A stretch of DNA of 64,000 bases from Amphiscolops sp. MND2022. Taxonomy: Eukaryota. Location of the stretch: positions 57,910,001 to 57,974,000 of the forward strand of contig OZ076409.1 of NCBI GenBank assembly GCA_964187785.1. Reading direction: 5' to 3'. Within the stretch, counting starts at the first letter, position 1. Each line of letters begins with the position of its first letter. The translations under genes were made by a program, and so were the position numbers. The notes beneath the pieces are model-generated. The model was not told the DNA's origin. It did no database searches and worked only from the letters and a program-made list of their open reading frames with translations. Positions 37,141 to 63,999 of this stretch are shown here, piece by piece.

Positions 37141-37145
37141 AATAA

Positions 37146-39099: not shown

Positions 39100-39148
39100 A
39101 ATTTATTATTCATAAAAAATAATATTTAATTTACAGCAAGGCTGTAAA

Positions 39149-39549: not shown

Positions 39550-39561
39550 TATTTATCAGGA

Positions 39562-40606
39562 TTAAATCTTGATGATTTGAATTGTAAATGTTAATGTTTC
39601 GGAGTTGAAATCAACTGGGTTTTGATTGTTATCCTCAAGGAAAAATTGAATACTATCTAACCTTGTTTTTTTATTTTTTTATATAAAATAATATTGGGTT
39701 CTTTTATAATTTTATATCCAGGAGGAGCACTAAGATTAAAAGAAAATAAAATTTGTTCTCTAATCCCGTTAACAATTGATCCATCTACACAATCACATTT
39801 AAGGTGAACTTTGTCGGTGGTTGTTATCATAACTGGTTTTTCTGATATATGAGTTCCTGCTGAGTAGCCCTTGTTTGTAAATCCTAAAAGGGTGTTAAGT
39901 TCAGAATGAAAATAAATGGAATATGAGGTTGTTAAAACTGATTTCATTGATATTGTATCTGCCTCTATGTTGATTTTAAACTTAGGATCAGGACCAGAAC
40001 TACAAGAATTAATAAGTTCTTGTTGGATGGCATTATTTATATCGATTAATTCATATGCTCCTGGTGGTATTTCTATTTCCAAGCAATCAGTTACAATTCT
40101 ATATTCTTCAAGAACAATAATTTTTGTTTTATCTTTATTATTTTGGTTAATTTGATCAATTATTTTATTTAAATTGTCATAATAATTTTCAGAGAGTGTA
40201 ACCTTTTTAAAATAATCATCATTTATAAGTTTTTTAATTTCTTCTATATTAGAAATTCCTTTATTGCCGGAGGTTTCATATATTTTTTTTATCTTTGACA
40301 TAAATTCAGTGGCAACTTTATATTCTTTTAACATTTTGTCTGTTTCAAAAAGTTTAATTTTATTATTCTTTTCAGTGATGTTATATACAGTGTTATATAC
40401 TTCTAAACTTGTTACTCCCATCATCCATTGTTCAGGCAATTCCAAAGGAATATCAAATGAAAAAGATTCTTTTTGTTTATTCATTTTAAATTCTAGAGTT
40501 TCTTGTGGTTTAGAATGTGTATTTTCAACAATTTCTTGATTAGATTTTGCAATACTCAACAAAAGAGATTCTTTTTATCATAGGTTACAAAATTTGATAG
40601 ATCCAT
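39562..40606 (-). pseudogene. Minor capsid protein, right arm (301-aa core open, homopolymer frameshifts at both ends)
   Basis: Mirror of 33505-34551. Confidence 0.75.
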
Positions 40607-40837
40607 TTATTAGGAGAAAAATTGTTTAAATCCACTTGCGGATATCTTATTTATGAATTCTTGGTTTTGTTTTGATAATTTCTTTTTTTGATTATTTTTT
40701 TCTATTATTTTCTCATCAAATTGATTCTCATTGGTATTCATTGGTTTTTGAATAATTTCAAATTGAGCTGAATAATTATTTATTTTCTTCTTTTAGGAAT
40801 TATAAATTTTGGTAGTATAAATTTAAAACTGCATTTT

Positions 40838-41526
40838 AAATGCTCCACAAGGGAATTTTAACTGGCCCCTAATGTATTATTTTTTGTATTATTATTACCT
40901 ATTTGTATGTTTTAACTTTTTCGAAAATTTAAGGATTTTTAATATTTGGTGAAAACGGAGGATTTTATATACACGCTATCAAAAAACCTAATGCGATTTA
41001 TTAGGATTTCTAATAAATAACCCCATTATAAGGATTTCTTATACTACTGTCAAGTATAAGTTATACTATTTCCGCGGAGAACATATAGACAAACAGTATT
41101 TCTTATACACAAAAAGGATTCATTATACACAAATAGGATTTCATATACTAATATTTAGTGATCCTAATAAAATATACTATATTTGAAATCAGGAATTCTA
41201 AGAATACTCGCAAATCGTATAAGGAATCCTATTTTAATAAAATTTCAAGCGCATTAGGATTATTAATACAAAGTATCAAGAATACTTATTTTGATTATTA
41301 GTAAAACTTATAAAATGGGGGAAAAGTTTTTGAGTCCTTAGTATACAGTTTATAAGGAATCCTGAAAACAGTTAGATATAAGGAAACTTGATACATTTCC
41401 CATGCATTAACAAGTGGAAAAAGTATCAGTAATACTTATACTTCAATGCAAATTGGCTTATAAGGAATACTTATGCATTTTAGACACGTAAATTTATGCG
41501 CACTTTGAAAGTTGTGTCTTGTAATG
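40838..41526. other. ~690-bp AT-rich insertion unique to the right arm
   Basis: Absent from the left arm. Flanked by a 23-bp direct duplication (40815-40837 / 41527-41549, one mismatch). Rich in AGGATT/AGGAAT motifs. Confidence 0.8.
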
Positions 41527-41535
41527 GTATAAATT

Positions 41536-41907
41536 TTAAACTGCATTTTTGAAGCCAATTATATTTGTGAGATACAACACATACAAACAATATGCTGCAC
41601 AATAACTGTCGTCTTTCTGGATTTGATATTCTGAATAGATACCATTATTAATTTGTTTTGTTATATTTAGTGGTGGTGGACAGCCATATGAATCGAAATA
41701 GTTTTGGTTTGTAAACATAACCCAATGTGTTCCTTTAGTTGGATGTAAGTTAACTATACCACTGGTGGTTATAAATTTATCATCTCTCATATATATTCCA
41801 CAAGATGTGTTCATGAGTTTTAAGATTTCTTTTATTTCTACATTGGAAGTTGCTTCATTTTTTAATCCATATTTATTAACAAATTCTTTGAATGATAAAT
41901 AATTCAT
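41536..41907 (-). CDS. Adenain-like protease, right arm (C-terminally truncated by 8 aa)
   Basis: Same translation as the left copy until a TAA at the insertion junction. Confidence 0.8.
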   Translation of the reverse strand: MNYLSFKEFVNKYGLKNEATSNVEIKEILKLMNTSCGIYMRDDKFITTSGIVNLHPTKGTHWVMFTNQNYFDSYGCPPPLNITKQINNGIYSEYQIQKDDSYCAAYCLYVLYLTNIIGFKNAV

Positions 41908-44900
41908 TTAATAGTTATTTTTCATCAATTTTGTTAATTTTTTTAGTTGTGAAAAAAGGCTAATTTTTAATGATTTGATTGGTATTTTGTGAAAAAAGAT
42001 TAATTTTTTAATGGTTTTACGAACTTAAATTTTTTCTTATATCAGGAACGGGAATTCGCTTACTACTGATTATTGCCCGTACTGATGGACCATTGTCTCA
42101 GGAGTGTGTAATGGAGTCTTACTCAAGTTTTTTCTGTAGGCTTTACAATTTTTTAGTTTTTCATCTTCGAGTGCCGTCCGATATCCAAGTGTTTCGCCCG
42201 GTATTGGGACACTGTTGACCTCTAAGGGGGATAGCTGTGACCTCGAATCGAACTTCGTGTTATCTTTCACGAGTGTACTTAAGACTCTAAAATTGGAAGC
42301 AATCTATTTGATGCTGACAGTTTTAAAAGTCGTCATTTGTTTTTTAAGCTACACCTAATAATACTAGGTTACCCCAAAGAAACAATACAAGTGAAATTTC
42401 ACATATTTGAGGGCTTAATTGTTCAAGAGAAAGACATCGAAACTCCTTTAAACTACATGTTGCCAATTGTCAATCACTGGAAACAGCACTCGACTCACTC
42501 ACAAAAATTACCTAATAAGTGAACTACATGACCGGTTGACTTACCTAATTGACCGTCTAGCTGAGATTATAGCTATTTTTATCCTTTCCATAATTGAGAG
42601 GCAGCAATTGAAAACTTCAAAGCATTTTGACTGACTTGTTTGTAAATAAAAATTAGGCGTTTTAAAAGAAAATGAAATACTGCTGATTTCGATGTCGCTC
42701 AGGTACTGCGGAGTGAAACCAATATCATGTTTTACTTTCATCATGGACTCATCTCAAAAATTTGATGGAATAATCTTGTTTGATAAATTTTGCAAGAGTG
42801 TACAGTATTCAATCTCTAGCCTATAGATAGGAACGTGTAAAGCAATAATTGGTTTAATCATAGGATATTTATCTAACTTCGTTATCTGAATGTTTATGTA
42901 GAACCAATAGATATTTCGAGTTCCACTTGTGTGAAATGACTGCTGCAAAAAATAACAAACAATTTTGAGAAGTATGTGAAAAAAACTCTTTGAAATTTGA
43001 AATTCAAAACAGTATTTTTAGGAATTTCTAAAAGGAGGATTTTCAGGAGGAATTTCTCCAGAAATTTAACAAAGCACTGTATCTTTATTTTCCGTAGATA
43101 TTTCATATGGAAAAGGAAAATATTTAAACCAAACAAGTTTTTTTTACAAAATTGCCGAGCACTAAATTTATATCCAAGCTAAAAAGTTTCACCCATTGAA
43201 TTCAACTGACGTAAATTTAGTAACATGCGGTATGTATTTGTGGAGATTGGTGGACTTTTTTGGTTGACCCGAAAGACCCCAAAATGACCCAAAAAATGAC
43301 TCCAAACATGAAAAAAACTGTAAAGTTTTCCGGTTTTTAACGTTTTCATAAATTTTTGTCAATATTTCGATAGATTTTGTGGTTTAGATTGTTGAAAACA
43401 TCCGAAAGGACAAATTTAAAACTTCGTTACCAAAGAGGTTTTTTAGCAGAAATAAAAGCATTTTTTAAATGAAAAAAGGCCTCAAATTCAGATCGAACTT
43501 GAAGAAAATTCCAAAAAGTTCAGATTTGTAACGTTTTTATTCATTTTTTGGTAAACTTTTGATACACTTGGTAGCTTAGAAAAGTAAAAACGTTCAAAAA
43601 GGAAAGAATTCGTTGTCCAAGAGGCTTCTTCGAAGACATAAACGCAATTTGTTTTGAAAAATGTCTCAAATTCAGACCGAAATGACAAAAACCAGGAAAA
43701 TAAACGTTTCCAATCACATTCTGACGCGTTTTGGAAGGACTTAATGGCTTAGAATGTTGAAGAGGTTCGAGATTGAAAGCGTTCATTATCCGGTAGGCTT
43801 TTTGTTAAGAAGTACAGACTGTTTTTCAAGAAAAAAACTCGAATTGCCATCAAAAGAATCAATTATCCACGTTTTCATGCCACTTTTGTCAAACTGTTTT
43901 TAAAAAAAGTAAGGCTTTTTGACTATTTTGTGGTCATTGTGGCAATTTGTTCTGCATTTATCTACCCAAACAACCCTATCGGACAACAACTTACTTTTTG
44001 AAAACAAATTTTGATTCTCCAAAGCAATTTCTTTAAAATTTTCAACGTTTCCAAGGATTACAACTCCTAAACTGTTAAACGACAAGTGAATGGGTTGTCC
44101 AGTAGGCTTTTTGAACGGATAAACGCCAGCTTCTGATAAAAATGTGCTTTAATTTGACACAAAAAGTGTCTAGAATTCCAAACAAATCCAGTTTATGTAG
44201 TTTCGTCAAATTTGTTAGTACAACTTTTGAAAATTTTTGCGAGTCAGAAGGTTAAAGACAATCAAAGTGAGCAAATCAGATTGTAACAATCATTGAACAG
44301 TCAAATGTAATAACTTTTTTTGTGAGAACATTACAGTGGTTTACGTGAGAAATACTGCAAAACGACACAAGTGAGTCGGAAACTAGAGAAATTGAAATTT
44401 TAAACGTTTTTGTGCGAAGTCTTTTTTTTCGAAACGTCTCCAGGGTTAGAACATTAGAATGGTTCAACAACAAATGCAGTTGATTTCGAGTGGACGTTTG
44501 TGGGAGGTATTTGCTGATTTGTGTCTGGTAAATGTCTCAATTTGAACCGAAAAAAAATAAAATATCGAACATTTCCCATTTTGACAAAAGAGATTTTTGT
44601 GAAGGTGTTCGTGAACTCGATGCTTCTAAAGCTCCAGACGAGATTTCAAGCTATGTAGTGCGTGTTCTGAAGAAAAACTTTGTAGTTTTCTTCGTAGAAA
44701 CTTATCTCAGAATGACCCATACGAAAAATGACTTTTGTGGGAATTTTCGTACATTAGAAGAATAAACTTTTCAACAGCAAACAAACGCAAATTAGAGTAA
44801 ATATTTTGGAATTCAAATGCAGTTTCATGTTTGAAAAGAGCATCAAAGTGACACCAAAAAAAAACTAAAAAGTAGATAGTTTTCAAAAATTTTTGACGTT

Positions 44901-46779: not shown

Positions 46780-46978
46780 ATCGCCAATCACAATACTTGA
46801 TTGCAACTTCGTGATTTCCCATGCCTTCAGTGATTTTCTAGGGCGCAGACATCGGTTTACAGGACCCTGAAAGATTTTATCTTTTTGGTACCAAAATTCT
46901 GTTTAACTTAATAGAAACATCACAGCAATGGCTCGCGGATGGCACTTTCTAGTTATTTTTGAGCCTCTGTTTTCAATC
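46780..46978 (+). pseudogene. MULE transposase relic (5' part; continues at 51552-51890)
   Basis: DPERFYLFGTK...SQQWLADGTF immediately before the gypsy insertion. Confidence 0.6.
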
Positions 46979-47288
46979 TGTCGTAAAGTGGTTTGAAAAG
47001 ATTTTGTTTTAAACTCAGTTCAATTCAGGTTCTCGTTTTATTTCTTTATGGTCCGTACAATACAGTAAAATAATATTCAAATTAATAGTTGACACCAGTT
47101 AAAATACAAGTCTATTATGTAAGAGTTTACTTGAGTTCTTTCACCGGTCATCGGTAACGCATATTGAAAGTTTCCATTCTTCGGTGTTATGTAACCGAAT
47201 CGCGGAGCCAATGAAATTGAAGTAGCTTCTTCGGTAACGAACGGTAGATGTTTACCGAATAACAGCAAGTGACGATGACGTCACCACA
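46979..47288 (-). repeat. 3' LTR
   Basis: Matches 51237-51546 with about 4 substitutions by eye. Confidence 0.95.
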
Positions 47289-47306
47289 TCCTCTCTTTTA
47301 GTTGAT

Positions 47307-48236
47307 TCATGCGAATCCTGCTTGATACTTCTGGGTTTGGGTTCGTAGTCGTTTCGGTCTATCATTGGTTATCGCGGTATGTTCTTCGGTCACCACCGGA
47401 TTCAAGTTATCAGCGTTACTAGTCTTCGGGGTGACTGGATCTTGAATAGCATCATGTCCAATGTTTGGTTGATGTTCCAGTTTCTTTGCGTCTGATGATG
47501 GTAGTGATGCGATTTGTCCGTCACTTGCCAAAATTGTTCGGTTGTTGTCATGAAGCCAAGCCGTGTTTCGTCCTTTCCGGATAATGTAAGTCAATTCTCT
47601 CGGCTCATGGTTTGAAGTGGGTTTGTACAGCACTTTTTCACCAACTTCATAAAATCCAACAACAGGGTTTCTCAAGTTTTTTCCAAGCAGTAATTTGGCA
47701 GGAGTGTCACCTCTAGCATTTGAAGAATTTCGATGACTGAACAAAATTTTATCAAAATAAGTAGTCAATGAACAACCTATATCTTTATTGTAAAAACTCA
47801 GGCTCTTTTTCAATGTTTGAACAGCTCTCTCGGCCAGTCCATTGCTTCTCGGTGAATACAAAGGTGTGTGAATCTTTTTGCATCCTTGTGCCGCCAACCA
47901 GTCTTTTAGGTCTTTGGATATAAACTCCTTTCCGTTATCGGACACAACCGTATATGGTATTCCAAACCGAGAAAAGATTGTTCGGAGACATCTGACCACG
48001 TTCCGCGTTGATCGGTCGGTGCACGGGAAAGCTTCCAGCCAACCGGACCCAGCATCAGCAATGATCAGAATGTTACCGTGTTCTGCTTCATAAAGCCAGT
48101 CCATATGCAGTCTTTCCCACGGAGCGCATTCTTCCCATTTGTCGGTAGAATCGATCAGTCTCGGTCGGTTTTTGCTGCATTCGGGACAGTTTTTGACAAA
48201 TTGTTCGATATCGTTGTCCATAAACGGCCAACGCAT
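47307..48236 (-). CDS. Integrase (DDE core), separated from RT/RH by a frameshift near 48240
   Basis: WERLHMD...VVSDNG...SNGLAERAV. Confidence 0.9.
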   Translation of the reverse strand: MRWPFMDNDIEQFVKNCPECSKNRPRLIDSTDKWEECAPWERLHMDWLYEAEHGNILIIADAGSGWLEAFPCTDRSTRNVVRCLRTIFSRFGIPYTVVSDNGKEFISKDLKDWLAAQGCKKIHTPLYSPRSNGLAERAVQTLKKSLSFYNKDIGCSLTTYFDKILFSHRNSSNARGDTPAKLLLGKNLRNPVVGFYEVGEKVLYKPTSNHEPRELTYIIRKGRNTAWLHDNNRTILASDGQIASLPSSDAKKLEHQPNIGHDAIQDPVTPKTSNADNLNPVVTEEHTAITNDRPKRLRTQTQKYQAGFA

Positions 48237-49863
48237 TCTTTTTCACCAAGTTTTTCAAAGCATTGATTCCTTGATGGACGTCGTGAAATTTTTCAATCAC
48301 TTGTTTTCGGCATGTAATTGGTATAAAAACTCTCGATCCATTATATATCAAGTCACTTTGTACTGTTAATGCATTTGAAACATTCAAAAAAGGTTTCTCC
48401 ATTTTGGTACAGTTTTTCCAATTACCGGTTCGGATTCGGTTCATCATCCGTTTTGAGAACTCATTCGATTGCATCTCTTTCCGTAACTTCTCGGCATCAA
48501 TCACGGGTTTCTCAAATGTAGCCATTGCTACCGCAACTAAGTCGTCTTCATCGTCTTTGAACCGTAAGCGTGACATTGCATCGGCATGACCAATATCCTG
48601 ACCGGGAGTGTATTGTACATCATAGTCATAGGCAATGAGGGTTATTGCCCATCGCGCAAGTCTCGCTGATACAACTTTCGGTATCTGGTTGCTCGGATTG
48701 AAGATATACTGTAGTGGCTTGTGATCTGTTCTAAGAGTGAACTTCCTCCCCAATAAAAATTGTCGAAGTCGTGTCACTGCGAATAATACAGCAAGCGCTT
48801 CCCGTTCAATGTAGCTGTATTTCTGTTCTGCCGATGTCAAGTTACAAGATATGTAGATAACCGGGTGATCATTCTGCGTCAATACACCATCAATGGTTTT
48901 TTCGGATACATCAGTTGTTAGAGTTACTTCTTTGTCCAATGTGTACGGTTGTACCAATGGTTCACATGTAAGCTCATCTACCAGTGACTGGAATGCCCTT
49001 TGACATTCATCGGTCCACGTGAAAGGTTTATCTTTTCGCCGGAGTTCATTTATACACCGCGTCTTGGCTGCATAGTTTGGAATCATTCGCCCAAAGTAGT
49101 TGATAGGTCCGATAAAAGCTTCAACTTCTTTGACATCCTTCGGTGGCTGCAGTTGAAGAAGTTTTTGAACGTGCTTCTGTTCCGGCTTTACTCCTTCCGA
49201 TGAATTTTCATAGCCCAAAAAGGAAAACGTTGTCGAGAATGATACGCACTTGTCTTCATTCACGGTGAAGTTCTTTGCTGCCAGCCGTTCTTTGACCGCA
49301 TTGTATCTTTTCCGGAGTTCGGCCTCGGTTACACCGAACAACAAGATATCGTCTTGATATGCGACGCAACCATCCAGTCCTTTGAGCACTTCTTCGATAG
49401 CTTGTTGGAAAATCGCCGCTGCATTTTTCAATCCTTGTTGTAACCGGGTGACTCGAAATAGGCCTCGGGTTGTATTCACTGTACACACATATTGCGATTT
49501 TTCATCAAGTGGCATTTGCCAATAAGCATTAGATAGATCAATTTTTGCAGAGAATTTAGCGCCTGAGACTTTTGAGAAATTGGTTTCAATACAAGGGAGG
49601 GGGTAGGCTTCGGTACTAATTTTATCATTTACGTGTACTTTATAGTCAGCACACATTCGTAGTTTATCACCTTTTTTCACCCACACAACCGGGGAACAAT
49701 TATCTACACCACCGGCTTCAACCGGTTCAAGAATTCCCAACAACAGTAATTCATCAATGGTTTTATTGACTTTCCGTTCAAGTGGCAACGGTACCTTCCG
49801 TGCCGCGCAAAACATTGGTTTAGCATCGGGTTTCAATTTAATGGAAGCTTTAGCACCTTTCAC
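48088..49863 (-). CDS. Reverse transcriptase / RNase H
   Basis: RMCADY, KIDLSNAYWQ, YQDD, TTDVS, EREALA, TDHKPL, ADAMSR. Confidence 0.93.
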   Translation of the reverse strand: MKGAKASIKLKPDAKPMFCAARKVPLPLERKVNKTIDELLLLGILEPVEAGGVDNCSPVVWVKKGDKLRMCADYKVHVNDKISTEAYPLPCIETNFSKVSGAKFSAKIDLSNAYWQMPLDEKSQYVCTVNTTRGLFRVTRLQQGLKNAAAIFQQAIEEVLKGLDGCVAYQDDILLFGVTEAELRKRYNAVKERLAAKNFTVNEDKCVSFSTTFSFLGYENSSEGVKPEQKHVQKLLQLQPPKDVKEVEAFIGPINYFGRMIPNYAAKTRCINELRRKDKPFTWTDECQRAFQSLVDELTCEPLVQPYTLDKEVTLTTDVSEKTIDGVLTQNDHPVIYISCNLTSAEQKYSYIEREALAVLFAVTRLRQFLLGRKFTLRTDHKPLQYIFNPSNQIPKVVSARLARWAITLIAYDYDVQYTPGQDIGHADAMSRLRFKDDEDDLVAVAMATFEKPVIDAEKLRKEMQSNEFSKRMMNRIRTGNWKNCTKMEKPFLNVSNALTVQSDLIYNGSRVFIPITCRKQVIEKFHDVHQGINALKNLVKKNALAVYGQRYRTICQKLSRMQQKPTETDRFYRQMGRMRSVGKTAYGLAL

Positions 49864-49911
49864 TGTTTGTAACTTTTCGGATACTTCTGCTTTGAAGCAC
49901 CGTTCAATGGA

Positions 49912-51102
49912 CTATTTGCAATTATTCATTATATCACGTCCCAATAAACCAAAATTTCTATCAGCATCAACAACAGCAATGTTTACATTAAGCTCTTTGT
50001 TATTATAAAACACTGTTGAGAAGAAAGCACCAAGATATTTCATTTTATGTTTGTCATATGTTTCAATTCCCGTGTTCTTTTCTTCAAGTTTCGGTTGTCC
50101 AATCTGCTTCCACAGCTTTTTTGAAATCAGCGTCAGTGATGCTCCAGTGTCTTTCATCATTGGTATTTCTTTACCATTCACTTTGATTTTCTCCATTGTA
50201 CCATTCTTGATATAGTCGGTATGCCCAATAAAATACGAATAATCGGAGTTGCTGCCATTGTTTTCTTTGATATTGGGGTCTTTTCCAACAAAATGGTTTG
50301 CTTGTTTCTTCACCCGACACACTTTTGCGAAATGGTTCGGCTTCTTGCAGTTGTTGCATGTTTTGCCGAAGGCCGGACAACTCCTTGGTTCATGCCTCGT
50401 TCCGCATTTCGGACATTCTTTGGCTTTGTGGTGGATGCCGGTTGAAATTTTGCCATTTCCGGTTGTCTTCTTTCGTAAGTGACCGTTCCGCGCAAATGAA
50501 ACTGTTTCATTCGGTTCGTTCTGTTTGTTCACGAACTGTACGGTTTGTTCACGCTGCTGAATAACCAACAAAATGTCGTCTATTGTAGCGTCTGGGTTTT
50601 GTTGAAGATGTTCCAACACTTTTAATTTGTGTTCGGAATTTTGTAATCCAGCAATAAAACGTAACCGTATCATGTACGCTTCGGGATCAGCGATCGTTTT
50701 CAAATTACCGAACTCGCAATATCGTGCTGCTTCCTTCAGACGTGCCAGAAAATCTCCCGATGATTCTCCATTCCTCTGGGTAATAGCCACGAATTTTGTT
50801 TGTTCGGCAATAACAAATCTTTTTCTAGGGTGCAGGTAATTTTATAACACCGTTTCAATTTCATTGAAAGCCATTGTTTCCACCTTTGTCGGTGCAACAA
50901 GCGATTTGACTTTCATAAGACTTTCCACACCGCAACGGAAAAGAAATTGATCCGTTACTTGTAAATCGGCCGGTGTTGTTCCAGCTGCCGGTACATCTGC
51001 TTTCTTTTCGGACCGACATCGCGCTTTGAATGCGTCTATCCAGGCTAGAGCAGCTTCGGGTTCGTGCAGATTGAGTTGCTTTTTTGTCTCGGTTGCTTGC
51101 AT
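49912..51102 (-). pseudogene. gag-protease, same frame as pol, with in-frame stops at 50842 and 49912
   Basis: Two zinc knuckles (CPKCGTRH...C and CNNCKKPNHFAKVC) and the aspartic protease motif DTGAS. Confidence 0.88.
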
Positions 51103-51236
51103 TTCAAAATTTCCACCGAACGAACTGAATATAATCTTCTCCCTTTCAATTGAAACGAAATAACGGTAAGAAATCTTCTGTTTCTTTAGCAATCAATTTT
51201 CAAATTTAAAGGAATTTCGGTGGTCTGGACACCATT

Positions 51237-51546
51237 TGACGTAAAGTGGTTTGAAAAGATTTTGTTTTAAACTCAGTTCAATTCAGGTTCTCGTTTTATT
51301 TCTTTATGGTCCGTACAATACAGTAAAATAATATTCAAATTAATAGTTTACACCAGTTAAAATACAAGTCTATTATGTAAGAGTTTACTTGAGTTCTTTC
51401 ACCGGTCATCGGTAACGCATATTGAAAGTTTCCATTCTTCGGTGTTATGTAACCGAATCGCGGAGCCAATGAAATTGAAGTAGCTTCTTCAATAACGAAC
51501 GGTAGATGTTTACCGAATAACAGCAAGTGACGATGACGTCACCACA
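51237..51546 (-). repeat. 5' LTR
   Basis: Matches 46979-47288; PBS adjacent. Confidence 0.95.
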
Positions 51547-51902: not shown

Positions 51903-53700
51903 TGTTACGACTATTTATCGGGGTGATTTTACGATTAGTCGCAGTTGTTTTATTTTTGATTCGTGTTGAAGTTGCATTTTCCGGGATATTTTCGGATTCA
52001 GAATCTGTTTCTTCAGTAGCAGTTATGACGGTCTGTTTTTTAACAGGAGGAACTATTAGTTTTAGCATCTCCTTTTGATTTTCAGCTAAGATTTTAGTAA
52101 GATCAGACATGATCTCTTTCCTCAGTGAAGACTTGATTTCCTCTAGATTTTCAGCGAGCGAGTACCCTAGGAGATTTACTCGTTCACGCTACGGGATTTA
52201 GGTTTTGGTTAGTCTCAGGTATTGGGGTCTCCATTTCGGTAGAAACTAGTTCTTCAACAGCTTTTCTCTTCTGACTTCTAGTAGTCATTTTTAGGCAGAG
52301 CAAGAGAGTGATTGTTCTTTGGAAAACTTGAATTCTTCAAAGAAATATGGTTTTCAAAACGAAGTATTAACGGAGTAGATTAGGAAACAGATTAAACAGA
52401 TTTACAAATCCTTAGGTATATATACTTTCACAGCATCATTTGTTCCTCACCTAAAAATTCCTAGGAATCCTTAAATCAGTTTTGTTCATCAAAATTGCTT
52501 AATCATCCTTATTATTTCAACCTTTCAATTAATTGTTCACGATTTAAAATTCCTAGTTACGGCTCCCTTACGGAGTACTTTGTTGAAATCATTTTTGTTC
52601 ATTGTCATCATTTCCGGTTTGATCGCGGAAAAAGGCGGCAAAATGAAAGTCTAGTTGATTTTCATCGAGAAAGGCACGCTGGTGTGATCAATGATTCATC
52701 TCGAGACTAGTAAAATCGTCTGTTCACGATAAAAGAATGACAAGCAAAACTGACTACGGAAATATCTCGGAGTGATTTTGGATAAATGTGCTGAGAATAT
52801 TTTGAAAAGAACAAATGATGCTGGAAAACGGTTAATATCGATCAAGAGCTGAGATAGCAACCAACACAAAATCATTTTGAGCTTCTGAACTAATTTTACA
52901 TGTATTGGAACATAATGGTTTGATTAATACAAATCAGTGGCTCATCTAGCCCAAAGAACATAACATAATAAATGTACAAAACATCCTTTTCCGAAATGAA
53001 GGAAAGCACCTTTTCTTTTAATGATTTCCTTTGTTTTAATCTGTAGTACGATCATTTTTATTAGGTATTAAACGGGAACAATTCGGAAAGGTATTATTTT
53101 AATGTTATGATATTTTGAACATTCCTTTTCGGTTCCGTATAGCATAAGGAGTATCTTGATGTATTACAACAATTGTGATCTTGTAGCATTTCTTTTTAGT
53201 TGTCCTGTATGTATTAACATTAGGCATAACCTTTTCATTTCACAATTTGCTCCGTAAGCGCTCCGTACGTATTAAGATTAGGTATAGCTTCTTCGCATTA
53301 CAATTTGCTCCGTAAGCGCTCCGTACGTATTAAGATTAGGTATAGCTTCTTCGCATTACAATTTGCTCCGTAAGCGCTCCGTACGTATTAAGATTAGGTA
53401 TAGTTGAGCAGTGCTTGCTTGCGGAGACAGAGCGGACAGCGTTAACAAATTCATTCTTATTCTCTCGCTCAATTGGCGTTGCTATGGTAACTAGGGATGG
53501 TGAAAGACGACGCTATTGGTCCGTAAAAATAGAAACATCTACTTTTCAATCAAGCTTAGTGACGCTGCCATTACGTTGTAAATATTCTCTTAAGTTGCTT
53601 AACTGCATTCTTAAGTGGATATTCACAACTAATCAATCATTGGAAAACAATTCCACCATTCTCTTTGTATGTTCTTTCATTTTAGATTGTATGAATTCCG
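51903..53700 (-). repeat. Candidate 3' LTR (or solo LTR) of the second gypsy element; inner boundary unresolved
   Basis: Abrupt junction TGTTACGA at 51903 truncating the MULE relic. A gag-N-terminus-like minus-strand frame (MTTRSQKRKAVEEL...MSDLTKILAENQKE...INSRN) runs to the junction. The partner LTR is not in the window. Confidence 0.4.
53242..53403. repeat. Tandem repeat, ~2.8 x 58 bp
   Basis: Unit ACAATTTGCTCCGTAAGCGCTCCGTACGTATTAAGATTAGGTATAGCTTCTTCGCATT. Confidence 0.9.
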
Positions 53701-53998
53701 TTGGGACCTCGGAATTGAATTTCATTTTGATGTTTTCGTTTTAGTGTGGAAAAGAAAAGGGTCCCAAAGTTAAGAATGTTTTTACTTTGTTATTTAGATT
53801 CGTATGGAATTTTCAGTTGACGAAACCGGAAGTAACGGAACGGTTACGCATGAAAACCTTATACCGGAAGTTTCGTTCTGTCTAAAATCACTTTTGAATA
53901 TTTTGCTTATCGCATTCATTAGACTAAAATCCTTTTGTTCTGATTATTTGCTCGTACTACAGTTAAACAAAGGTAAGTGATCAGTTAAAGTTTTTTAC

Positions 53999-54649
53999 CT
54001 AGTTTTGCGGGGTATTGCCATGTCCTCGGCCTCTTGCGAACTTCGGAATTCCTCCGCAACAGGAAAAATCCCGACCGGGAGCGGGTCGTGACAGGGCGCC
54101 TCTATAACTTGTTGACCACGGCCTGGGGCAATGTGGGATCTCTCTGGCAATTAGTACAGGCTGCTTTCGTGCTCTTTTGATTCTCGCAGAGGTAAATGAA
54201 TTCCCTCTACCGGCGGTGCAGTAGTAGTCATCTGTCAAAGACAGTCCGTGAGTCTCTTCTATTTCTTTGATGGAAGGCTCATCTAGATCATTTAACTTCT
54301 CAGTCTTTGACGGGGGAGCGTATTCCTTTTCGTTTGTGATGTCGGCGAGTATAGGGGCACGGGTCAGTTCGGGCATCTCTCGAGATGAGTCCGGTTCTTC
54401 GTAGTAGTCTTCCGAATTTTCTTTCTGATAGGACTCGACGATAAAAGCTTCTTCCGTATCTGACTCGAAAGTCGATACTGATTCTTGGGTAGAATTAAGG
54501 TCTGCCTCACTTCCTCGCCATACTTCTACAGAGGAATCACTCAAATTGAGTCTTCCCACCATGTTTAAGGGTAGGGTTTTGATCGGTGTACTATATCTGT
54601 GATTTTCTTCATCCGAAGAGATGTCAATGACAAGGGCATAGTTGTCCAT
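53999..54649 (-). CDS. Hypothetical acidic protein (216 aa), same strand as pol
   Basis: ATG-started open frame. N-terminal LVIDISSDEE, acidic middle, basic RIKRARK patch. Confidence 0.55.
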   Translation of the reverse strand: MDNYALVIDISSDEENHRYSTPIKTLPLNMVGRLNLSDSSVEVWRGSEADLNSTQESVSTFESDTEEAFIVESYQKENSEDYYEEPDSSREMPELTRAPILADITNEKEYAPPSKTEKLNDLDEPSIKEIEETHGLSLTDDYYCTAGRGNSFTSARIKRARKQPVLIAREIPHCPRPWSTSYRGALSRPAPGRDFSCCGGIPKFARGRGHGNTPQN

Positions 54650-55204
54650 TTTTCTTTTAGCGATTTTTGTCTAAATCTTGAAGAATTAATTCTGGGTAGG
54701 CTTTTCTTTACGTTTATTGTACGGCAAATGAAGAGGTTAATTTCTCCTTATTCGTGTTTTTCCTGTGTTCCTATTGGTTGATATTTTCTTCTTATTTCAG
54801 TTCGTTTTATCTTCGGAAAGCGTTTTACTTCCATCTGCGCTGTGATTGGCTGAACCGAATAACTGAAGTTTCTAATTTTGAACCTCGTCATGCTGTCATC
54901 AATTTCTTTCCGGTGGTGATTCGTATGACGTCATAATTTAGAAAAAGACTTGTTTTCCTTTTAGGACATTCAACTAATCAGATTTATTTTTTGGTTTTCC
55001 TTTGTTTTGGGAGTGATATGGTCTTATCAGTGCTTCATCAGGCTTGTGTGAAATAAGATGAATGGCGTATTTTTCCTTTTCTTGGTCGTGATTAAATGAT
55101 CTTGGATTCTTTTCTTATTTTTATCTTCCGGAGCGTTCTCGTTGCTCTTCTCTTGTTTGACCTGTTGTTTTCTTTTAGATTGCTTCTGAAGATTTTGCTC
55201 TCTT

Positions 55205-58200
55205 ATGGAAGACGAAGGAGCCGGGCAATCCTCTACCGTACCACGTACGGGTTTCTTCAGTGGAAATGAGACAAACTTCGAGTATTCCGATGACGATATT
55301 CTTCCGGAAGCTGTCTCTTCTGCCTCAGGTTGGTAAAATCGTTCTGTTTTCCATGGGTATTTGGACTATTTGATTTTGGTGATCAGCCTTTATAGTCTTA
55401 CCCGTAACTCTGACGCGTCAAACCAGATCTTGATTTTCAGTAACTCAACCTGTCTCAACTTCAGCTGCCATTACTTGTGTGACTTCCACAGCTGTAGTTG
55501 TCTCCAGTTCTTCCGTGTTGCCTCCGGTTTCGAGTGTTCTAACTGTTCGTGCTACTGTCAATGATGTATTGACTTCCGCGCTTAGCGCGTCTGAATCTGG
55601 GCCTTCATCTGGGCTTTTTCTTTCTTGCTCCGCTGAAGATCCGACGACTGCCAGTGTTGATCCTGTTGGGGGTCAACCTCGTGTTTCAGATCCTGCTCTT
55701 TCCCCTACTGGTGGCTCGGATAGTGAGTCTCAAGGAGGTGAGACTGATGCCCCCGTCGATCGAGAAACAGGTCAGTGTATTCTTATTTGCTGTTTGTGTG
55801 AGAGGCTGTATTTCTTTTCTTTTATGGTATATCTGTGCATGTAAGTTTTTCTTTTGGAATATTTTTCCGTTAGTTATACGGATGTTGTGATGTTTTAGTT
55901 TCTCCGCCTGTTGCTGGTCGTAAGATGGTGGTGAAATTTAAAACTCCTCCAAAGAAGCAAAAGTTGATCTCTCCTGAGGAACCTCCGAGTTTTGATTATG
56001 GTGTGACTGCTGGATTTGATTCCGAAGGGACCGGGTTGTTGGCGATGAGTCCCGATTATCTTTTGGAGTGGAGTCGTCATATAGTGGAAGAAGTTGATAC
56101 CCGTACCTCGCAAACAATCCAGAGTGGTAAGTAGTCATTTCGGGCTGGGTTTTTATGACTTTCATTTTGGTCTGTTCTTTCTTTCGTCTTCTTTTTTTTT
56201 GTGTTGTTTTCCAAGCTCGTTCTGTATTTTTGATGGTCCGTGAAGTTGCCGTTTCGTGAGTGTTACTGGTGTTGTTCTAGGTATCAGCAAGTTAGTTGAG
56301 AAAGTGGACGATCGTTTGGGGAAGAAAAAGACCAGAAAGTACAGCAGTCGCAACGATTTTCACAAAAGAATGTTGGGGTTGCATTCCGCATTTCCTTCGT
56401 TTGTGTCTGGTCCCAAGAATGGCCAAGTGACACACTTCTTCTGCAAGGTGTGTAAACGGGACGTGGCTATGAAGGCTCATGGATCGGGCGAATTCATCCG
56501 ACACTTTGGCTCTGATGGACATTGGTATCGCGATGTAACCTATCGTGTTCATATGGGATTGCCTGTGTTGAATCGTCTTCTTGAGCCTATGGAGTTGTCA
56601 GATAGTCAGATGGCAGAGTATCGAGCACGTCCCTTTGTTGATTTGGCCGAGGGTTATCCGTTCCCCGAGGAGTTAATCCCCAAGCATTGTCAAGTAAAGT
56701 CGAGAGTTCCGTTCATGACCCTCGTATCCTGCTTTTGTGACTTGCTCCGGAGTGGTGGCGATCTTACTTTGCTGCGCCGCATGTGGGGTCATTTCTGTGC
56801 TTCGTTGGGTGATCGGAAAACCGAGTATTCCATGCAGTGGAGCCGTTCCGAGACTGTGGTGAGTATTATTTGGTTATGGAGTAGTAGAAGTATATCGTAT
56901 GTCAGTGAGGAGTTACTTTTCCTTCTCTTTTTTTTTCTAAGAGGTTTGCATTTCAGTCCTTCGTGTGTCAAGGCCTTGCTCCGCGAGTTATCCGTTTGCT
57001 TCTGAGTGGGATCACAAAGTTTAAAGAGTATTCTATACAGTTCGAGAAGGAAGATGATGCTGAGTTTTGCTTTGTGGTCTGGTGGGAGGACGATCATCTA
57101 AAGAAGGTGTGCATCAGTGTGGAGTCCCTTGATCAGGCGTTGCCCGATGCTGAATTGGTTCCTCTTTCTCTCGTGATTCACAGTCTGGATCCTCCTCACT
57201 TTCCGTTGTGTATCCGTGGTGCAAGTCCTACGCTGGTTCGTGTGCTTGGCAACGTACTTCCCGATGGTAGGGATTTTGTGGTCCACGAGCGTTTCACTAG
57301 TGAGGTGTTCCTAGAGTGCTTCCGTCGGGCGCACCAGAATATTTTCGGGATGCTAGAGGTCGTGACTGCAGTGGAATACATTGTGTTGCTGATGCGCAGT
57401 GCTCTCCATGATACGTGGACTGAAGGGAAGACAGTGTTGCGCCGTTGCATACGCAAGGGTTCCGTTCCTTTTGAGGATTTGCTTCCTGTTGTGGACGATA
57501 TAGTTGGACTGTGGGCAAACATTCGTCCCTTCGTTCGTTATACAGGGTTGCCACATGTTAAAGAACGGGTTGACAGCGTTAGTATTTCATCCATAACTTT
57601 TGGCAATTTTCTCTTTTGTCGTTCCTGTTCTTGGAAGTTTGTTTTGTTGTTACTAGATGCGCGGTGCAGATTGGAATATAATTGCAGATGGTATGATTTT
57701 ATACAAGTTTGGACTTCTGCGATTGGTACTCACCACATGTAAGTGTTGATTTTTGCGTTCTTCTCTTTGCCATTGCCTGTTACGGATTGTGTTGGAGTTC
57801 TTGCTTGATTTCGACTGTTTCTGAGTGGAGATGTTAATTGTATTGTTTGCCGAGTCATGTCCGCTTTTAATTTGACCTTTGATTATCTGTAACTATCCCG
57901 CTTGTATGATCTTCTTGTGTGTGTTTCAGTTCGTAACAATTTCGTGAAGTTCTTTGGGCAGCGTGATGATTACGATTTCTGTTGTTACGGGGGAATCTGT
58001 AACTTTGTGTATTGCTTGCTGCTGAAAACTCGATCCACAGACGGACTTCCTGGCATTCATGAGTGGGAGAGTTACATGGACATTGAGAAAATTGGTGGTT
58101 TCCCTGCTATATAAGCTGATGCGTTCCTTGTGAACTGCGAATTGGGCCAGGAATTGTTGAAAGGCAAGACAAGTGAAGTACAGGAATTCCGTGTTAATTG

Positions 58201-59078
58201 CCGCAAGTTTCTCGATGAGTTGATTCGGGAGATTGTTTTCCATCGGAGCGTTTCTTCTGGAGTTTCTCGTGGTCTTTACTGCTTTGGTCCCGAGATTCTG
58301 CTTGATGGGGATGGCGATAGTATTTTTGGCCTGTTTGCTGGTCTTTGCAAAATATTAGTTGACTGCGGAGTGCTGCCGTTGGGATCTTCGAGTGCCGCAG
58401 TTGATGAATTCTACAGTTATGTAGTAGAAAAACGTCGCCAGAATGCCGGGAGTGATCGATCAGGAAATGCAGTATTTGATGTTATGGCTTTTTTTGCTGG
58501 GCGATTATTCCTTCCAGTCACGTCACAATGTCTTGCGAATATTCAAACTGTGTTGTTTGATTGTGAGTTCTGGCCGGAGCCGTTATCCTTCCGTGTTGTT
58601 GGAGCTTCCTGGTAGCGCATTGGATCAAAAGGCTGTAGATAACTGTGTCAGGATGGTGCAGTCTTATGTGTTGAGTCCAGGCTATGTCCCGAAGTTATTT
58701 TTCACTGATTTGACATTGGATGCTGTACGGAGTGCTGTCGAGGATGCGGGCGTGTTTTATGTGACTGGCGATTTTGATGTGTGGAAGAACGTCTGTAGTT
58801 CCGGATTTGCTGCGTTTGTGTCTACTGTGAGTGCTTCGTTCTCAAAGGTGTTGTCGCGACGTCGAGAAGCCGAGGAAAAAGAGTATACGGAGTGGAATCG
58901 GGCGAATAGGCAGACTCAGATTGACCGTCGAGCTGGCTCTAGTCGCAATGAGAGCGGCGGGAGTATTGCAGCCAAACCCAAGAAGGCAGCGGCAAGTGGG
59001 TCAAAAGGAGGTGGAGGGTCTAGCTCTAAAGGTGGATCGTCGAAATCTGGCAGTAAAAAGAAAACCGGCCAAGAATGA
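55205..59078 (+). CDS. Spliced BED-zinc-finger / hAT-transposase-like gene (7 coding exons; one nonsense codon and one frameshift in the last exon)
   Basis: Exons 55205-55328, 55441-55770, 55899-56126, 56281-56858, 56957-57577, 57657-57738, 57930-59078, joined by GT-AG introns with consistent phases. FFCKVCK...HFGSDGH finger. TAA at 58112; poly-T frameshift at ~58490. Confidence 0.7.
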
Positions 59079-59259
59079 TGCTTATCAAGGTGTTTATGAT
59101 ACCCTTAATAGATCATCTAGTAGCTAGGGTTGTTCTGTTTAGACTCTGCAATTCTGTAATTTTCATGCATTTGTTATGCTACTCTTGTTATGATTGTTTT
59201 GTAGTTTAGAAATTAACGTTACCATCCCGGTTCGGCTTGGTCAACTTGATCGTTTTCAT

Positions 59260-62200
59260 TCAGTTTTGAGTTTGAGAACTTTCTTCCTTAGTGATAGCGT
59301 CTAGCATCCGAAAATCAGGATGTGCATTAGGTCTAGGATTAGGTCGTAGGTTATATCTTCCCGTTTTTCTAGGATTGTATCCGACAACTATAGGCGGCAA
59401 TGTAGGCGGTATTGGGGGACTTTCTGTAGGCGGCGGGGTCATTATGAAAGGGTTATCACTGACGTCTAAGTTGAATGACGTGTTATCTCCGGAGGATGTT
59501 TTATCCATCATTGTATTCTCATCTGCAGTTGTTGTAACTGTTTCATGGTCCGTTGCATCTCCGTCTTCAGTTTGTACTTCCGTGATAGTAGCTTCTTCAT
59601 TGTCGTTTTCCGTTGGGGTTCCGAACAGAACTTCTCCGAATTCGGTTTCCCAAGCTTGCGCGTACCAATCATCATGGGTTGTTTTAACCTCGGGATCTGG
59701 AAGCTGATCTTCCACTTTGACTGTTACGTCAGGTACTCGCTGATTGGGCGCGTATAGCCTTAGGCGAATTCTATGGAGGGTTTGCGTATATCTTGTTCCC
59801 GTCCGTCTTACGACGTAATTGTTATTGGAAAGGACTTTGACCACTATATATGGTCCTGTCCAAATGCAATCTTTGAAAGCGAATTTCATTGACTGGTTAT
59901 CAGCCTTCGGGTTCAGGACGTAGCAATAGTCATTGATTTTCAATGGCGTTGCTGTCGCTTTTTTATCATAATATCGCTTATACTTCAAATATGATTGCAT
60001 GAGGTTGTCCTTGGCTGACTGGTGGATTTCAGCGATTTGCTTTTGTAATTCGTCCGTTAGGTCTTCGTTAGCGTCTTTTTTCCATTCTGGCTTGAGTCCC
60101 AGTTTAATATCCAGAATGTTGTACGGGATGCGTCCGTGGAATACTGTTGTCGGTTCGCAGCCTAGGCTTTCATGGTAGCTTGTGTTGTAGTTCATTACTG
60201 CAATTTGTACATATTTATGCCACATTGAACGTCGTTCTCCCGTTGATATTTTTAAGGACGTTTTTAGTGATGCATGCGTTCTCTCAAGTATTCCAATCGT
60301 TTGTGCGTGTTTCGTTGATGCGTGACTAATCCGTATGTCGAGAGTTTGTGCTATCTGGTTTACGACATCTGATCGGAATTGTGATCCTTTGTCGGTGAGG
60401 ATTATTGTAGGCAGGTAACAATGACGTGTCATTACGTCAATTATGCATCGGCCTACTGTTCTGGCTGTCATGTCCTGCGTAGGGTATGCGAAGAGGTATC
60501 GAGAGAAAACGTCCATCATTGTTATGATGTGCCTGTATCCATTAGATGAAGGCAAATTTGGTAGAAAGTCGACTTCTAAGCAATCCTCTGGGCCGAAGGT
60601 AAATTCCGCGTTGCTTAGCATTTTAGGGCGTATTTGTCTCGTGTCAATCCGTTTGTTGGCTATGCAGTCAGGGCAGTTGATTACCCAAGCTCTGATTTTC
60701 CGTGCGAGTCCCGGGTAATAGTATTTTGTTCGGCTTTCTTGGATCATTTCTGTTATTCCTGGATGTTTGTTGATTTTCCCGTGTAGAGTTGATAGGAGCT
60801 CGGGGACTATGTGTTTTGGTATGAGGATTTGATGATGCGTGATTGTGCCATCCTCCCCGTAGTATTTGCGCATGAGAACTCCATCTTTGACTATTATTCT
60901 TTCTTCGTGGCGTAGCAAGTTTCTCCCTCTTGGTTCAGTTTTGAGGAGATGTTTGTCAGATTCTTCGTGGAGTAGACGTAGCTTTAGTGCTTTCAAGATT
61001 GGGTCTGCATCTTGTTCGTTGCGTATTCGGGCGTTTTCTTTGATTGCTCCGAATGCATAGACTGCTGTATTGAGCGGTATGTGGACTGCTTCTGTTATTT
61101 CGGTGGATAAGTTTTGTTGTTCTTTTTCGTCCACTGCTCGTTGTTTGCTAAGAGCTTTTCTTGCAAATGTTTCCTGTTCTGATTCTTCTTCTTCATCTGG
61201 TAGGAAAAAAAGTTGTTCTTCATCAGCAACATCTGTGGACTGTAGGTTGACTTCAATGGGTGCCGTTATGATGTCGTCTCGTAACTTGAGCTGAACTTTT
61301 TCTTTTGGCGTTAATTCTAGGCGAGACAGGAAATCGGCAGCTGTGTTTTGTGACCCGGCTACATGCATGATACGGAATTTGAATTGTAGTACGTAGTCAC
61401 AAGCATTCCAGAGCGCAGGTGGCGTTGTCTTTGTTTGGAAAAACCTTGTTACCGATCTATTGTCCGTTAAAACTAGAGTTGGTAGCGTCGTTTCCCGTAA
61501 GATGTGACTGTACTCTAGGAATGCATGGTAGATGGCAAGGAACTCCTTACAGTATATTGACATTTTCAGCTGTGACAGCGAGAATACGCGGGAACCAAAA
61601 GCGACCGGTGCGAAAGTTTTCCGTTTGGAGAGTAGCTTTTTATCGTCGTTTTCTTCTATCATTACGGCATAACCTGATGCCCGGAAGCTTGCGTCCGTCA
61701 TTAGTACGTATTGTTTTTCCGCAACTGGTTGTCTGAGGGCTAGCCCACATGCTTCCGCTAGGCTTGCGTTGATGGCTTTGAAGTTGTCGACTAATTCTTC
61801 TGATATGGTGATTTTTGCATCTGCTTTTAGGAGTTCGTACATTCCAATCATTTTTTCGGACAGTCTTGGTATGTAGTTTCTGTAGTAGTTGATGAACCCA
61901 ATGTATTTCTGGACTTGTTTCTTTGACCGGGGAAATCTGATTTTTGACAAGAAACTGGTGATTTTGTGGTCTTGCGGTGCTACTCCGTGGGGTGTGATGG
62001 TTCTTCCCAGGAATTCGATTTGGGTGACACCAAAGTGGCATTTTTCAATTGTGAGTTTTAGTCCTGCCTTGCGGATGCATTTGAAGACTGCTCTGATGTT
62101 CTTAATGAGTTGTTCCGTTGTGTTGGCGGCAATTCCAATGTCGTCCACATATTGGGCACACTGGTCTGCTTTGATGACGGTGTCGAGGTATTCCCGCATG

Positions 62201-63999
62201 AAGCTCGAAAAGGCTGACAAGGCTCTACTAAGTCCTTGGGCTAGCCTACGATAGGCAAACGTTCTACTAGCAAAATTAAATGCAAGAAGTTCTACTGACC
62301 TTTGATCTGCCATTTGGAGGCAGTGATAGGCTTGTGAGCAATCTAGTTTGCAGAACAGCTGCTTCCCCGCTAGGTGTTGTGCGGCATCTGAGAGGGTGCT
62401 GATGGGGTGGTTGTTGTTTATGTAGTCATCTGAGATGAGGGCGTTGATCTTCCGTAAGTCCACTAGGAGCCGTAGTTTGCCGTTAGGTTTGCGTTGCGCG
62501 AAGATGGGGCTGGCATATTTCGAGAATGGGAGGGTTGTGATGATCCCGTATTTGTGCATCAGTGCCAATTCTACTGTGAGGTCGTCCTTGAGGTTGATGG
62601 GTACGGGGAGACTCTGTGTATATACCGGTTTGTCGTTTTTGGGAGTTAGGCATACCTTGAACTGGTTGTTCATTCCGATGTCCAGTCGGTGACGTGCAAA
62701 AATGTCATTGAATTCGACTAGGGTGGACTCTAGGTTTTCACGGTCTTCTCCCGTTATTAGTGAATCATTCCATTTGAATAGCGAGAGGAATTGTGTTCTG
62801 GATTTTTCGTCTTGTTTGGGGTCCAGTTCTTCTAATCTTTGTAGTTCGCGTAGTTCTCGTAGAATGCGTTGTTGGATGGGTTCCGATTCATCTCCGGGAT
62901 TTTCGGGAGTTGGGAACCAGAATTTCTCTTCTGTTTGTTCTGACGAATCAACTTGCATCAGTGCATTAACGTACGCAACAACATCGTCGTGTTCGGTGAG
63001 TAGATTGAGGGCTGCTATATCTACTGCTCGTATCAATTTCGTTTCTTCAGGTTTCAGTATTTGTAATTCTGCTAGTTTCGTATGTGGCGTTACTGTATAG
63101 GGGAAGTCTGTGGTGTTCGCTATTTTTATCGCGACTCGTTTGTCTCGGGCTGTTGTTATTGCTGGGGCTACTATGAGTTTTGCATTTTCGTCGAATTGTG
63201 GTAAAGGTTGTACTGTCCCAGTTATTGAGTGGTCATTGCTTGTGGTGATGGAAGCGTGGATGATCCGCGTGGCTTGGGCTGGTATGGTGTGTTTTTCTTC
63301 CGTCTTGATAGTGATGGGTTTGGGGTTGCACTTTTGTCTTTCATCTTTTAGGGCTAGAGTGATTTGTATTTTAGGAAAGTCTATTGTTCCTTGTGCAGTA
63401 TCTAGGATTGCGGAATGTTTCCGGAGGAATGCCAGGCCAATGATTGGGTAAGATGTTTTGGTCATGATGATGAAAGTCTCCTCGAACGTGTAGTCACCGA
63501 TTTTGAACTGCATTGTGTATGTTGCACGGGCTTTTTCGATTTCTGTGTTGGCATATTGTATCTTGAAAGGGGGTGGAGGTGCCTTCGCGATTATGGCTGC
63601 GTTGGCTTCAGTTTGTATCTTGTCTGCGTCTCTTTCGCTGATGACGTTGATGTAGGCTCCCGAGTCGACTAATGCATCAATTCTAGTGTTTTCAAAGTCA
63701 AGAGGAATAAAGAGCATTCTTTTCTTCTTTTTGAGGGTAATTGCTGACATTAACGGAATGTAGTCGTCGTCTTTATCATGTTGTATGAATTCTTTTATGA
63801 TGTTGAGATCATATGGCAGTTGTTGTGGGCATTCCGTTACTTCGTCGTCTGCATGATTGTTGTCCTGAGTTGGCAATTCGGATGCTATTGTTGGTGGTGA
63901 TACTGTTTGATCATCTACCCCGCGTTGTTTTTTTGCCTGTTGTGTCCATATTGTTTTATCCTCGATGCAGATGATGTTCTCTGCATCTATTGGTGTGGA
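59260..63999 (-). CDS. Ty3/gypsy pol polyprotein (PR-RT-RH-IN), intact, 5'-partial
   Basis: LVDSGA, YVDD, TDAS, HHCC (H..H..CPDC), D-D-E (EVDF/TDKG/ILER), GPY motif. The frame stays open to the window edge. Confidence 0.95.
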   Translation of the reverse strand, partial: STPIDAENIICIEDKTIWTQQAKKQRGVDDQTVSPPTIASELPTQDNNHADDEVTECPQQLPYDLNIIKEFIQHDKDDDYIPLMSAITLKKKKRMLFIPLDFENTRIDALVDSGAYINVISERDADKIQTEANAAIIAKAPPPPFKIQYANTEIEKARATYTMQFKIGDYTFEETFIIMTKTSYPIIGLAFLRKHSAILDTAQGTIDFPKIQITLALKDERQKCNPKPITIKTEEKHTIPAQATRIIHASITTSNDHSITGTVQPLPQFDENAKLIVAPAITTARDKRVAIKIANTTDFPYTVTPHTKLAELQILKPEETKLIRAVDIAALNLLTEHDDVVAYVNALMQVDSSEQTEEKFWFPTPENPGDESEPIQQRILRELRELQRLEELDPKQDEKSRTQFLSLFKWNDSLITGEDRENLESTLVEFNDIFARHRLDIGMNNQFKVCLTPKNDKPVYTQSLPVPINLKDDLTVELALMHKYGIITTLPFSKYASPIFAQRKPNGKLRLLVDLRKINALISDDYINNNHPISTLSDAAQHLAGKQLFCKLDCSQAYHCLQMADQRSVELLAFNFASRTFAYRRLAQGLSRALSAFSSFMREYLDTVIKADQCAQYVDDIGIAANTTEQLIKNIRAVFKCIRKAGLKLTIEKCHFGVTQIEFLGRTITPHGVAPQDHKITSFLSKIRFPRSKKQVQKYIGFINYYRNYIPRLSEKMIGMYELLKADAKITISEELVDNFKAINASLAEACGLALRQPVAEKQYVLMTDASFRASGYAVMIEENDDKKLLSKRKTFAPVAFGSRVFSLSQLKMSIYCKEFLAIYHAFLEYSHILRETTLPTLVLTDNRSVTRFFQTKTTPPALWNACDYVLQFKFRIMHVAGSQNTAADFLSRLELTPKEKVQLKLRDDIITAPIEVNLQSTDVADEEQLFFLPDEEEESEQETFARKALSKQRAVDEKEQQNLSTEITEAVHIPLNTAVYAFGAIKENARIRNEQDADPILKALKLRLLHEESDKHLLKTEPRGRNLLRHEERIIVKDGVLMRKYYGEDGTITHHQILIPKHIVPELLSTLHGKINKHPGITEMIQESRTKYYYPGLARKIRAWVINCPDCIANKRIDTRQIRPKMLSNAEFTFGPEDCLEVDFLPNLPSSNGYRHIITMMDVFSRYLFAYPTQDMTARTVGRCIIDVMTRHCYLPTIILTDKGSQFRSDVVNQIAQTLDIRISHASTKHAQTIGILERTHASLKTSLKISTGERRSMWHKYVQIAVMNYNTSYHESLGCEPTTVFHGRIPYNILDIKLGLKPEWKKDANEDLTDELQKQIAEIHQSAKDNLMQSYLKYKRYYDKKATATPLKINDYCYVLNPKADNQSMKFAFKDCIWTGPYIVVKVLSNNNYVVRRTGTRYTQTLHRIRLRLYAPNQRVPDVTVKVEDQLPDPEVKTTHDDWYAQAWETEFGEVLFGTPTENDNEEATITEVQTEDGDATDHETVTTTADENTMMDKTSSGDNTSFNLDVSDNPFIMTPPPTESPPIPPTLPPIVVGYNPRKTGRYNLRPNPRPNAHPDFRMLDAITKEESSQTQN

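Follow-up and report, generated by a model that had tools for sequence, protein, structure and literature searches.

The DNA analyzed here, a window of 64,000 nucleotides (positions 57910001-57974000 of contig OZ076409.1, within the 1.07-Gb assembly of Amphiscolops sp. MND2022), contains a Ty3/Gypsy retrotransposon that carries an intron-containing gene, hereafter the cargo gene, in antisense orientation. The cargo gene lies between pol and the 3' long terminal repeat (LTR), is fixed across Gypsy lineages (designated A to D), keeps its splice sites, is under selection and is exchanged as a cassette relative to pol. Its product is predicted to have the fold of a hAT transposase with a dead active site. 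According to the explanation favored here, which is held with about even confidence, the captured, catalytically dead gene has been retained as a DNA-binding factor through which the family of its element stays transcribed or unsilenced.

The cargo gene in its host element

The cargo gene is convergent with pol, with 181 bp between its end at 59078 and the pol stop. The coding sequence of 3112 nt (~1037 codons) is divided over seven exons, separated by six phase-consistent GT-AG introns (Table 1). This agrees with the original prediction, made from the letters alone, of a plus-strand gene of ~1030 codons ending ~180 bp from pol, with an LTR only beyond it; no LTR is present between 59078 and 59260. 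The span given there, 53800-59260, starts within the LTR. The exon structure stands, but the gene does not read intact in the window: in exon 7, this copy has a stop (58112-58114) as well as a frameshift of one base (near 58490). The projected exons read through in two of nine near copies, and a donor is damaged in one of these two. An internal duplication that takes in the ends of both cargo and pol was observed in two copies (L035/L036 and L069/L070).

At 10 of the 12 splice sites, the GT or AG is kept in 19-20 of 20 rows of the alignment. The sites flanking intron 2 vary (18/20 and 12/20 rows) because distant subfamilies contain an additional intron and intron 2 is missing from one. In eight distant copies, introns 3-6 are 19-44% identical vs. 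47-67% for exons 4-7. Intron 1, however, is 85-91% identical in ten divergent copies, whereas its flanking exons are 34-66% identical, and it is probably a cis element or a crossover site. Upstream of the coding sequence, a candidate non-coding exon has a donor GT in 17/20 and an acceptor AG in 18/20 rows; the conservation of this donor (53973) points to an antisense transcript that begins within the LTR. In lineage C, exons 4-7 form a single open reading frame (ORF) of ~870 amino acids (aa); when it is aligned to an uninterrupted translation from exon 4 through intron 4 into exon 5, precisely the intron is missing from it. As the intron that follows the finger exon and one preceding the last exon have similar, approximate profile positions in lineages A, B and D and in the transposon-borne copies discussed below, the ancestral cargo likely had introns, which lineage C lost, probably via spliced complementary DNA (cDNA). 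Retrotransposition leaves introns antisense to the genomic RNA in place, and this would explain their survival in the element described here.

The host element itself is well defined. The domain order of its pol (protease, reverse transcriptase (RT), RNase H, integrase) is that of Ty3/Gypsy, and paired TG...CA LTRs, a primer site (TGGTGACAGGAG) and a short target duplication are also found. The 5' LTR, for which the original prediction advised a search beyond the window together with the target duplication, begins at window-equivalent position 65393 and is interrupted by the insertion of a Gypsy from another lineage; the duplication is GTTGT. The segment 51903-53341 matches DNA outside the window at 97.8%. 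The nested insert is a lineage-B element (L031:2841 to L032:9818) with LTRs of 1830 bp that are 99.7% identical, a TAGGT target duplication and a cargo copy of its own, with repeat arrays inside the introns. Target duplications of 5 bp were found in all 16 other copies checked (of 19 fetched), which is at odds with the 8-bp duplication and terminal inverted repeats (TIRs) of an independent hAT insertion. The sense-strand layout is 5' LTR, gag, pol, antisense cargo gene, 216-aa sense ORF and 3' LTR. The gag ORF opens within the 5' LTR and continues across the primer-binding site (L031:464-1822 (-), L031:4042-5772 (+)); lineages A and B show this arrangement, as do the LTR ORFs of lineage C. A sense env ORF 3' of pol, as in errantivirus-like elements, is absent; its slot is occupied by the antisense gene, as predicted, and by the 216-aa ORF, which had been overlooked.

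A genome search with exon 4 yielded 7105 first-look candidates, 150 of which were scored. All 19 cargo copies fetched have a pol gene and an LTR pair. Among 150 integrase matches of at least 97% identity, 75 fell on the cargo list, and random picks from the remainder contained the cargo in 19 of 20 cases. The cargo is also present in lineage B, with integrase ~58% identical to that of the window (20/20 loci), in lineage C (12/12, with RT and LTR pairs in 6/6), in a further A-related group (8/8) and, beside pol, in lineage D (7/10). Thus, other pol copies do carry the gene before the 3' LTR, and the four lineages share slot and orientation with integrases 46-58% identical to that of the window. 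The last exons of lineages A and B are ~20% identical, and the youngest LTR pairs are up to 100% identical.

Ratios of nonsynonymous to synonymous substitutions (dN/dS) were calculated according to Nei-Gojobori with mixed references, whilst the module-exchange comparison uses one reference. The cargo is under purifying selection: three pairs with a dS of about 0.09-0.10 have dN/dS values of 0.12-0.22, and two pairs with a dS of about 2 have values of 0.09-0.10; other distant pairs are mostly saturated, with dN of 0.34-0.41. The 216-aa ORF has dN/dS values of 0.05-0.24 (unsaturated pairs with dS >0.1). Compared with the window, three copies have a dS of 0.05-0.07 in the cargo, 0.76-0.81 in the integrase and >2 in the small ORF; another has an integrase dS of 0.24 and a saturated cargo, and three have a small-ORF dS of 0.25-0.30 and, again, a saturated cargo. 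From these discordant values, it follows that pol, the cargo and the small ORF are reshuffled modules, the likely mechanism being template switching. Cargo alleles with about 41-64% amino-acid identity per exon to that of the window and saturated dS are found on integrases that are 97-99% identical. The cargo divergence reflects such old alleles rather than any measured positive selection.

The 216-aa ORF, which reassorts independently of both pol and the cargo, found no match in a Pfam scan. Its N-terminus is acidic and starts with LVIDISSDEE, which we take to resemble a SUMO-interacting motif. Comparable acidic hydrophobic starts are found in lineages B and D. In lineage C, an ORF occupies the same slot, and similarity to the small ORF of the window was not detected.

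The cargo protein

A C-x2-C-x17-H-x5-H finger and the segment YSIQFEK, starting at 56442 and 57029, respectively, confirm the finger and the segment described in the original prediction. The C, C, H and H of this N-terminal BED-type C2H2 finger are conserved in all five groups; the Pfam zf-BED profile matches it weakly, below the cut-off (5/25 rows, best E 0.022). In active hAT transposases, a D-D-E triad and a CxxH motif are invariant. In the window, the first Asp is replaced by Glu (57044-57046), the second by Arg (57215-57217) and the catalytic Glu, whose position is putative, by Ser (58590-58592). At triad position 1, E is found in most rows of lineage A and all rows of D, H, N, R or Q in B, and Q or R in C; position 2 is D in no row, and position 3, a column placed by eye, is variable. 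No CxxH motif is present in the cargo alignment. The alignment columns support the suspicion that the protein is catalytically dead.

Structure prediction yields an RNase H-like core with a large helical insertion as in Hermes, and the neighbors of the cargo in the ESM protein language model carry Dimer_Tnp_hAT or DUF4371 families. Since the finger and the scaffold are kept and the active site is lost, the protein is best read as a DNA-binding regulator. Own TIRs and an 8-bp duplication, as expected of an autonomous hAT element, are lacking; no boundaries other than the retrotransposon's own were found, and the window repeat listing contains no inverted-repeat pair around the gene.

A second carrier

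In three of the ten lineage-D loci, pol is missing. Two of these lie inside a ~35-kb element, and the third has the same backbone and right end. This element is CACTA/EnSpm-like: both fully bounded copies have a 37-bp TIR starting with CCCCAG and a 2-bp duplication, and it encodes a tnp2-type transposase (DUF1258, E 4e-9; Transposase_21, E 0.002, below the cut-off) and two SET-like ORFs. It holds the intron-containing cargo gene and pieces of the Gypsy small ORF; no integrase was found in it. CACTA elements of 16-20 kb with extra ORFs are described in a review on giant transposons (PMC6431247).

The two subfamilies have a CACTA backbone in common, at 91-97%, and differ in their cargo alleles. 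Of the 30 nearest loci, 12 are CACTA-borne (two subfamilies), 15 lie beside an integrase and 3 are unplaced. The nearest Gypsy allele is 74-75% identical to the CACTA cargo. In a quick, midpoint-rooted tree, both CACTA alleles fall within one clade (support 96) of Gypsy-borne alleles and are not sisters, which suggests that CACTA elements took the cargo from Gypsy, perhaps twice. The plant mobile domain (PMD), which is common to Gypsy and MULE elements and is speculated to be anti-silencing, is likewise one accessory domain in a retrotransposon and a DNA transposon; however, MULEs obtained PMD from host genes (PMC5418596), whereas in the present case the CACTA copies branch within Gypsy-borne alleles and the protein itself appears transposase-derived.

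Other repeats in the window are a ~9-kb palindrome (32755-42067) whose arms are 96-100% complementary and carry AT-rich ORFs, one with a zf-C2HC_2 match below the cut-off (E 1e-4); a separate small Gypsy adjoining the large element (46976-51533 (-)), whose pol is broken and whose direct repeats measure at least 300 bp; and, at 3897-4911, a direct repeat that is perfect over 300 bp or more and has a spacing of 715 bp.

Table 1. Features of the element, the cargo gene and the second carrier (window coordinates unless stated otherwise).
Feature	Position	Strand	Remarks
Gypsy pol	59260-63999	-	ORF of 1579 aa; protease, RT, RNase H, integrase; extends past window edge
3' LTR	51903-54093	-	2191 bp, TG...CA; flanked by GTTGT
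58-bp tandem repeat, 3 copies	53207-53403	.	lies in LTR
Second accessory ORF, 216 aa	54649-53999	- (sense to pol)	between cargo and LTR; crosses purine tract, enters LTR
Candidate upstream exon, antisense transcript	53798-53972	+	within LTR; donor 53973, acceptor 55178; predicted non-coding
Cargo exon 1 (coding)	55205-55328	+	ATG at 55205
Cargo intron 1	55329-55440	+	
Cargo exon 2	55441-55770	+	Ser/Thr/Pro-rich, low complexity
Cargo exon 3	55899-56126	+	interrupted by additional intron in most divergent subfamilies
Cargo exon 4	56281-56858	+	BED-like C2H2 finger at 56442-56522
Cargo exon 5	56957-57577	+	predicted RNase H-like core
Cargo exon 6	57657-57738	+	82 nt, 20/20 rows
Cargo exon 7	57930-59078	+	predicted helical insertion and C-terminal hAT-like region
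CACTA/EnSpm-like transposon with cargo, ~35 kb	C2:29298732-29334034 (L227:534 to L207:5836)		more copies on C2, C3, C10; second subfamily on C6

Possible functions and origin

Transposases are reported to activate their own copies, and TnpA of Spm/CACTA is reported to be transposase-derived (bioRxiv 10.64898/2026.08.24.746577), whilst the VANC proteins of VANDAL elements target element-specific repeats (PMC5735166). Like the cargo protein, TnpA and VANC are element-encoded, non-catalytic, fast-diverging accessory proteins. However, they belong to DNA transposons, and TnpA derives from the transposase of its own element, whereas here a retrotransposon would hold the transposase of another class; the main text of the TnpA preprint never mentions retrotransposons, Gypsy or LTRs. 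An accessory function of the cargo, be it regulation, anti-silencing or targeting, may be supposed, and by analogy the chances appear roughly balanced that it lies in activation or anti-silencing. An ancestral Gypsy would have acquired, in antisense, a gene with introns that likely encoded a hAT transposase; this gene would have lost its cutting residues and been retained by purifying selection in at least four lineages. Its spliced messenger RNA presumably begins in the 3' LTR or close to it. The protein may oligomerize as transposases do, bind repeats within the element by its finger and open or protect the element's chromatin, the part played by TnpA and VANC in plant DNA transposons. It would thus likely be a sequence-specific DNA-binding factor by which its own family stays transcribed or unsilenced. 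A candidate target motif is enriched 19-59-fold in all four lineage-B elements and modestly in A; comparable enrichment is absent in lineages C and D.

Rather unlikely, the protein could be a self-limiting repressor or competitor, with each cassette allele dampening its own or rival subfamilies. The many old alleles on near-identical integrases would fit such a role. HBZ of HTLV-1 has a spliced structure. It is an antisense regulatory gene in an LTR element, as the cargo would be, although HBZ, a small bZIP protein, is retroviral and the cargo would be a captured transposase (PMC11963269). Nevertheless, the abundance of exon-4 candidates and the identity of the youngest LTR pairs suit a helper at least equally well. 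A role as integration cofactor, tethering the integrase complex to chosen chromatin or protecting cDNA ends, is less probable still. It could explain why the whole transposase scaffold is kept, beyond the finger alone, and the cargo is convergent with the integrase gene in every fetched Gypsy copy, but the two reassort freely and the same gene resides in a CACTA-like element apparently devoid of integrase.

As to the origin of the protein, the order of finger, RNase H-like core, helical insertion and C-terminal region is that of hAT transposases (Hermes PDB 8edg; ZMYM1/FAM200/ZBED5-type) and domesticated hAT genes, from which the cargo differs by the missing triad, CxxH, TIRs and 8-bp duplication, and by having a retrotransposon rather than the host as its domesticator. 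The DNA-transposase origin put forward in the original prediction is supported by structure and language-model features, but not by Pfam or profile-profile scores. An hmmscan of the cargo exons and homologs matched neither Dimer_Tnp_hAT nor DUF4371; hhalign gave no match to Ac-type hATs and, for Tip100/ZMYM1-type hATs, P values of 0.028 and 0.016, the latter out of register; and a local profile-profile run was collinear over 397 columns, yet inside the shuffled null. With a root-mean-square deviation of 5.3 and 10% identity to Hermes, the non-significant profile-profile scores leave a small chance that the protein is an unrelated RNase H-fold or host protein. A PDB profile search with the cargo found no match, an exon 7 search for longer homologs found none, and a DUF4371 search of the genome was as silent as its control. 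Genuine hAT elements are present in the genome, and cargo profiles found only a weak finger match (E 0.001) and no donor among the ORFs of 50 of their loci. Although such hATs exist and the window's cargo gene is damaged, an independent hAT insertion or neutral passenger is scarcely credible and was rejected given the fixation in an identical slot and orientation in four lineages, the retrotransposon-only boundaries, the dN/dS values and the lack of significant full-length matches to the hATs of the genome.

A literature search, outside most subscription journals, Repbase and supplements, turned up no publication describing an antisense gene of hAT origin with introns in Gypsy elements. The closest known systems are plant Ty3/Gypsy elements of the Retand, Grande and RIRE2 type; Retand elements typically have antisense ORFs in this slot, and the resemblance extends to lineage-wide fixation, a proposed DNA-binding regulatory role and tandem repeats in the region (PMC11963269). 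In contrast, the host here is apparently an animal, the gene contains 6-7 introns and encodes a predicted entire hAT-fold protein of ~1000 aa, and neither the cargo exons nor their homologs match TRP28 (PF04195) in Pfam; the word "intron" is absent from the main text of the Retand paper.

Tentatively, a disarmed hAT transposase may be a portable anti-silencing module across transposon classes, with one domestication by Gypsy, swappable target-specific alleles and two later uptakes by CACTA elements. Transposase domestication is known for hosts, or for a DNA transposon's own enzyme; here, a retrotransposon appears to be the tamer of an enzyme of another class, which it appears to have kept, introns included, over deep lineages. 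The cargo protein is a candidate animal counterpart to the plant anti-silencing proteins, and its target specificity is directly testable, since so many alleles occur on pol backbones that are nearly identical. The antisense orientation allows a retroelement to carry, gain and lose introns.
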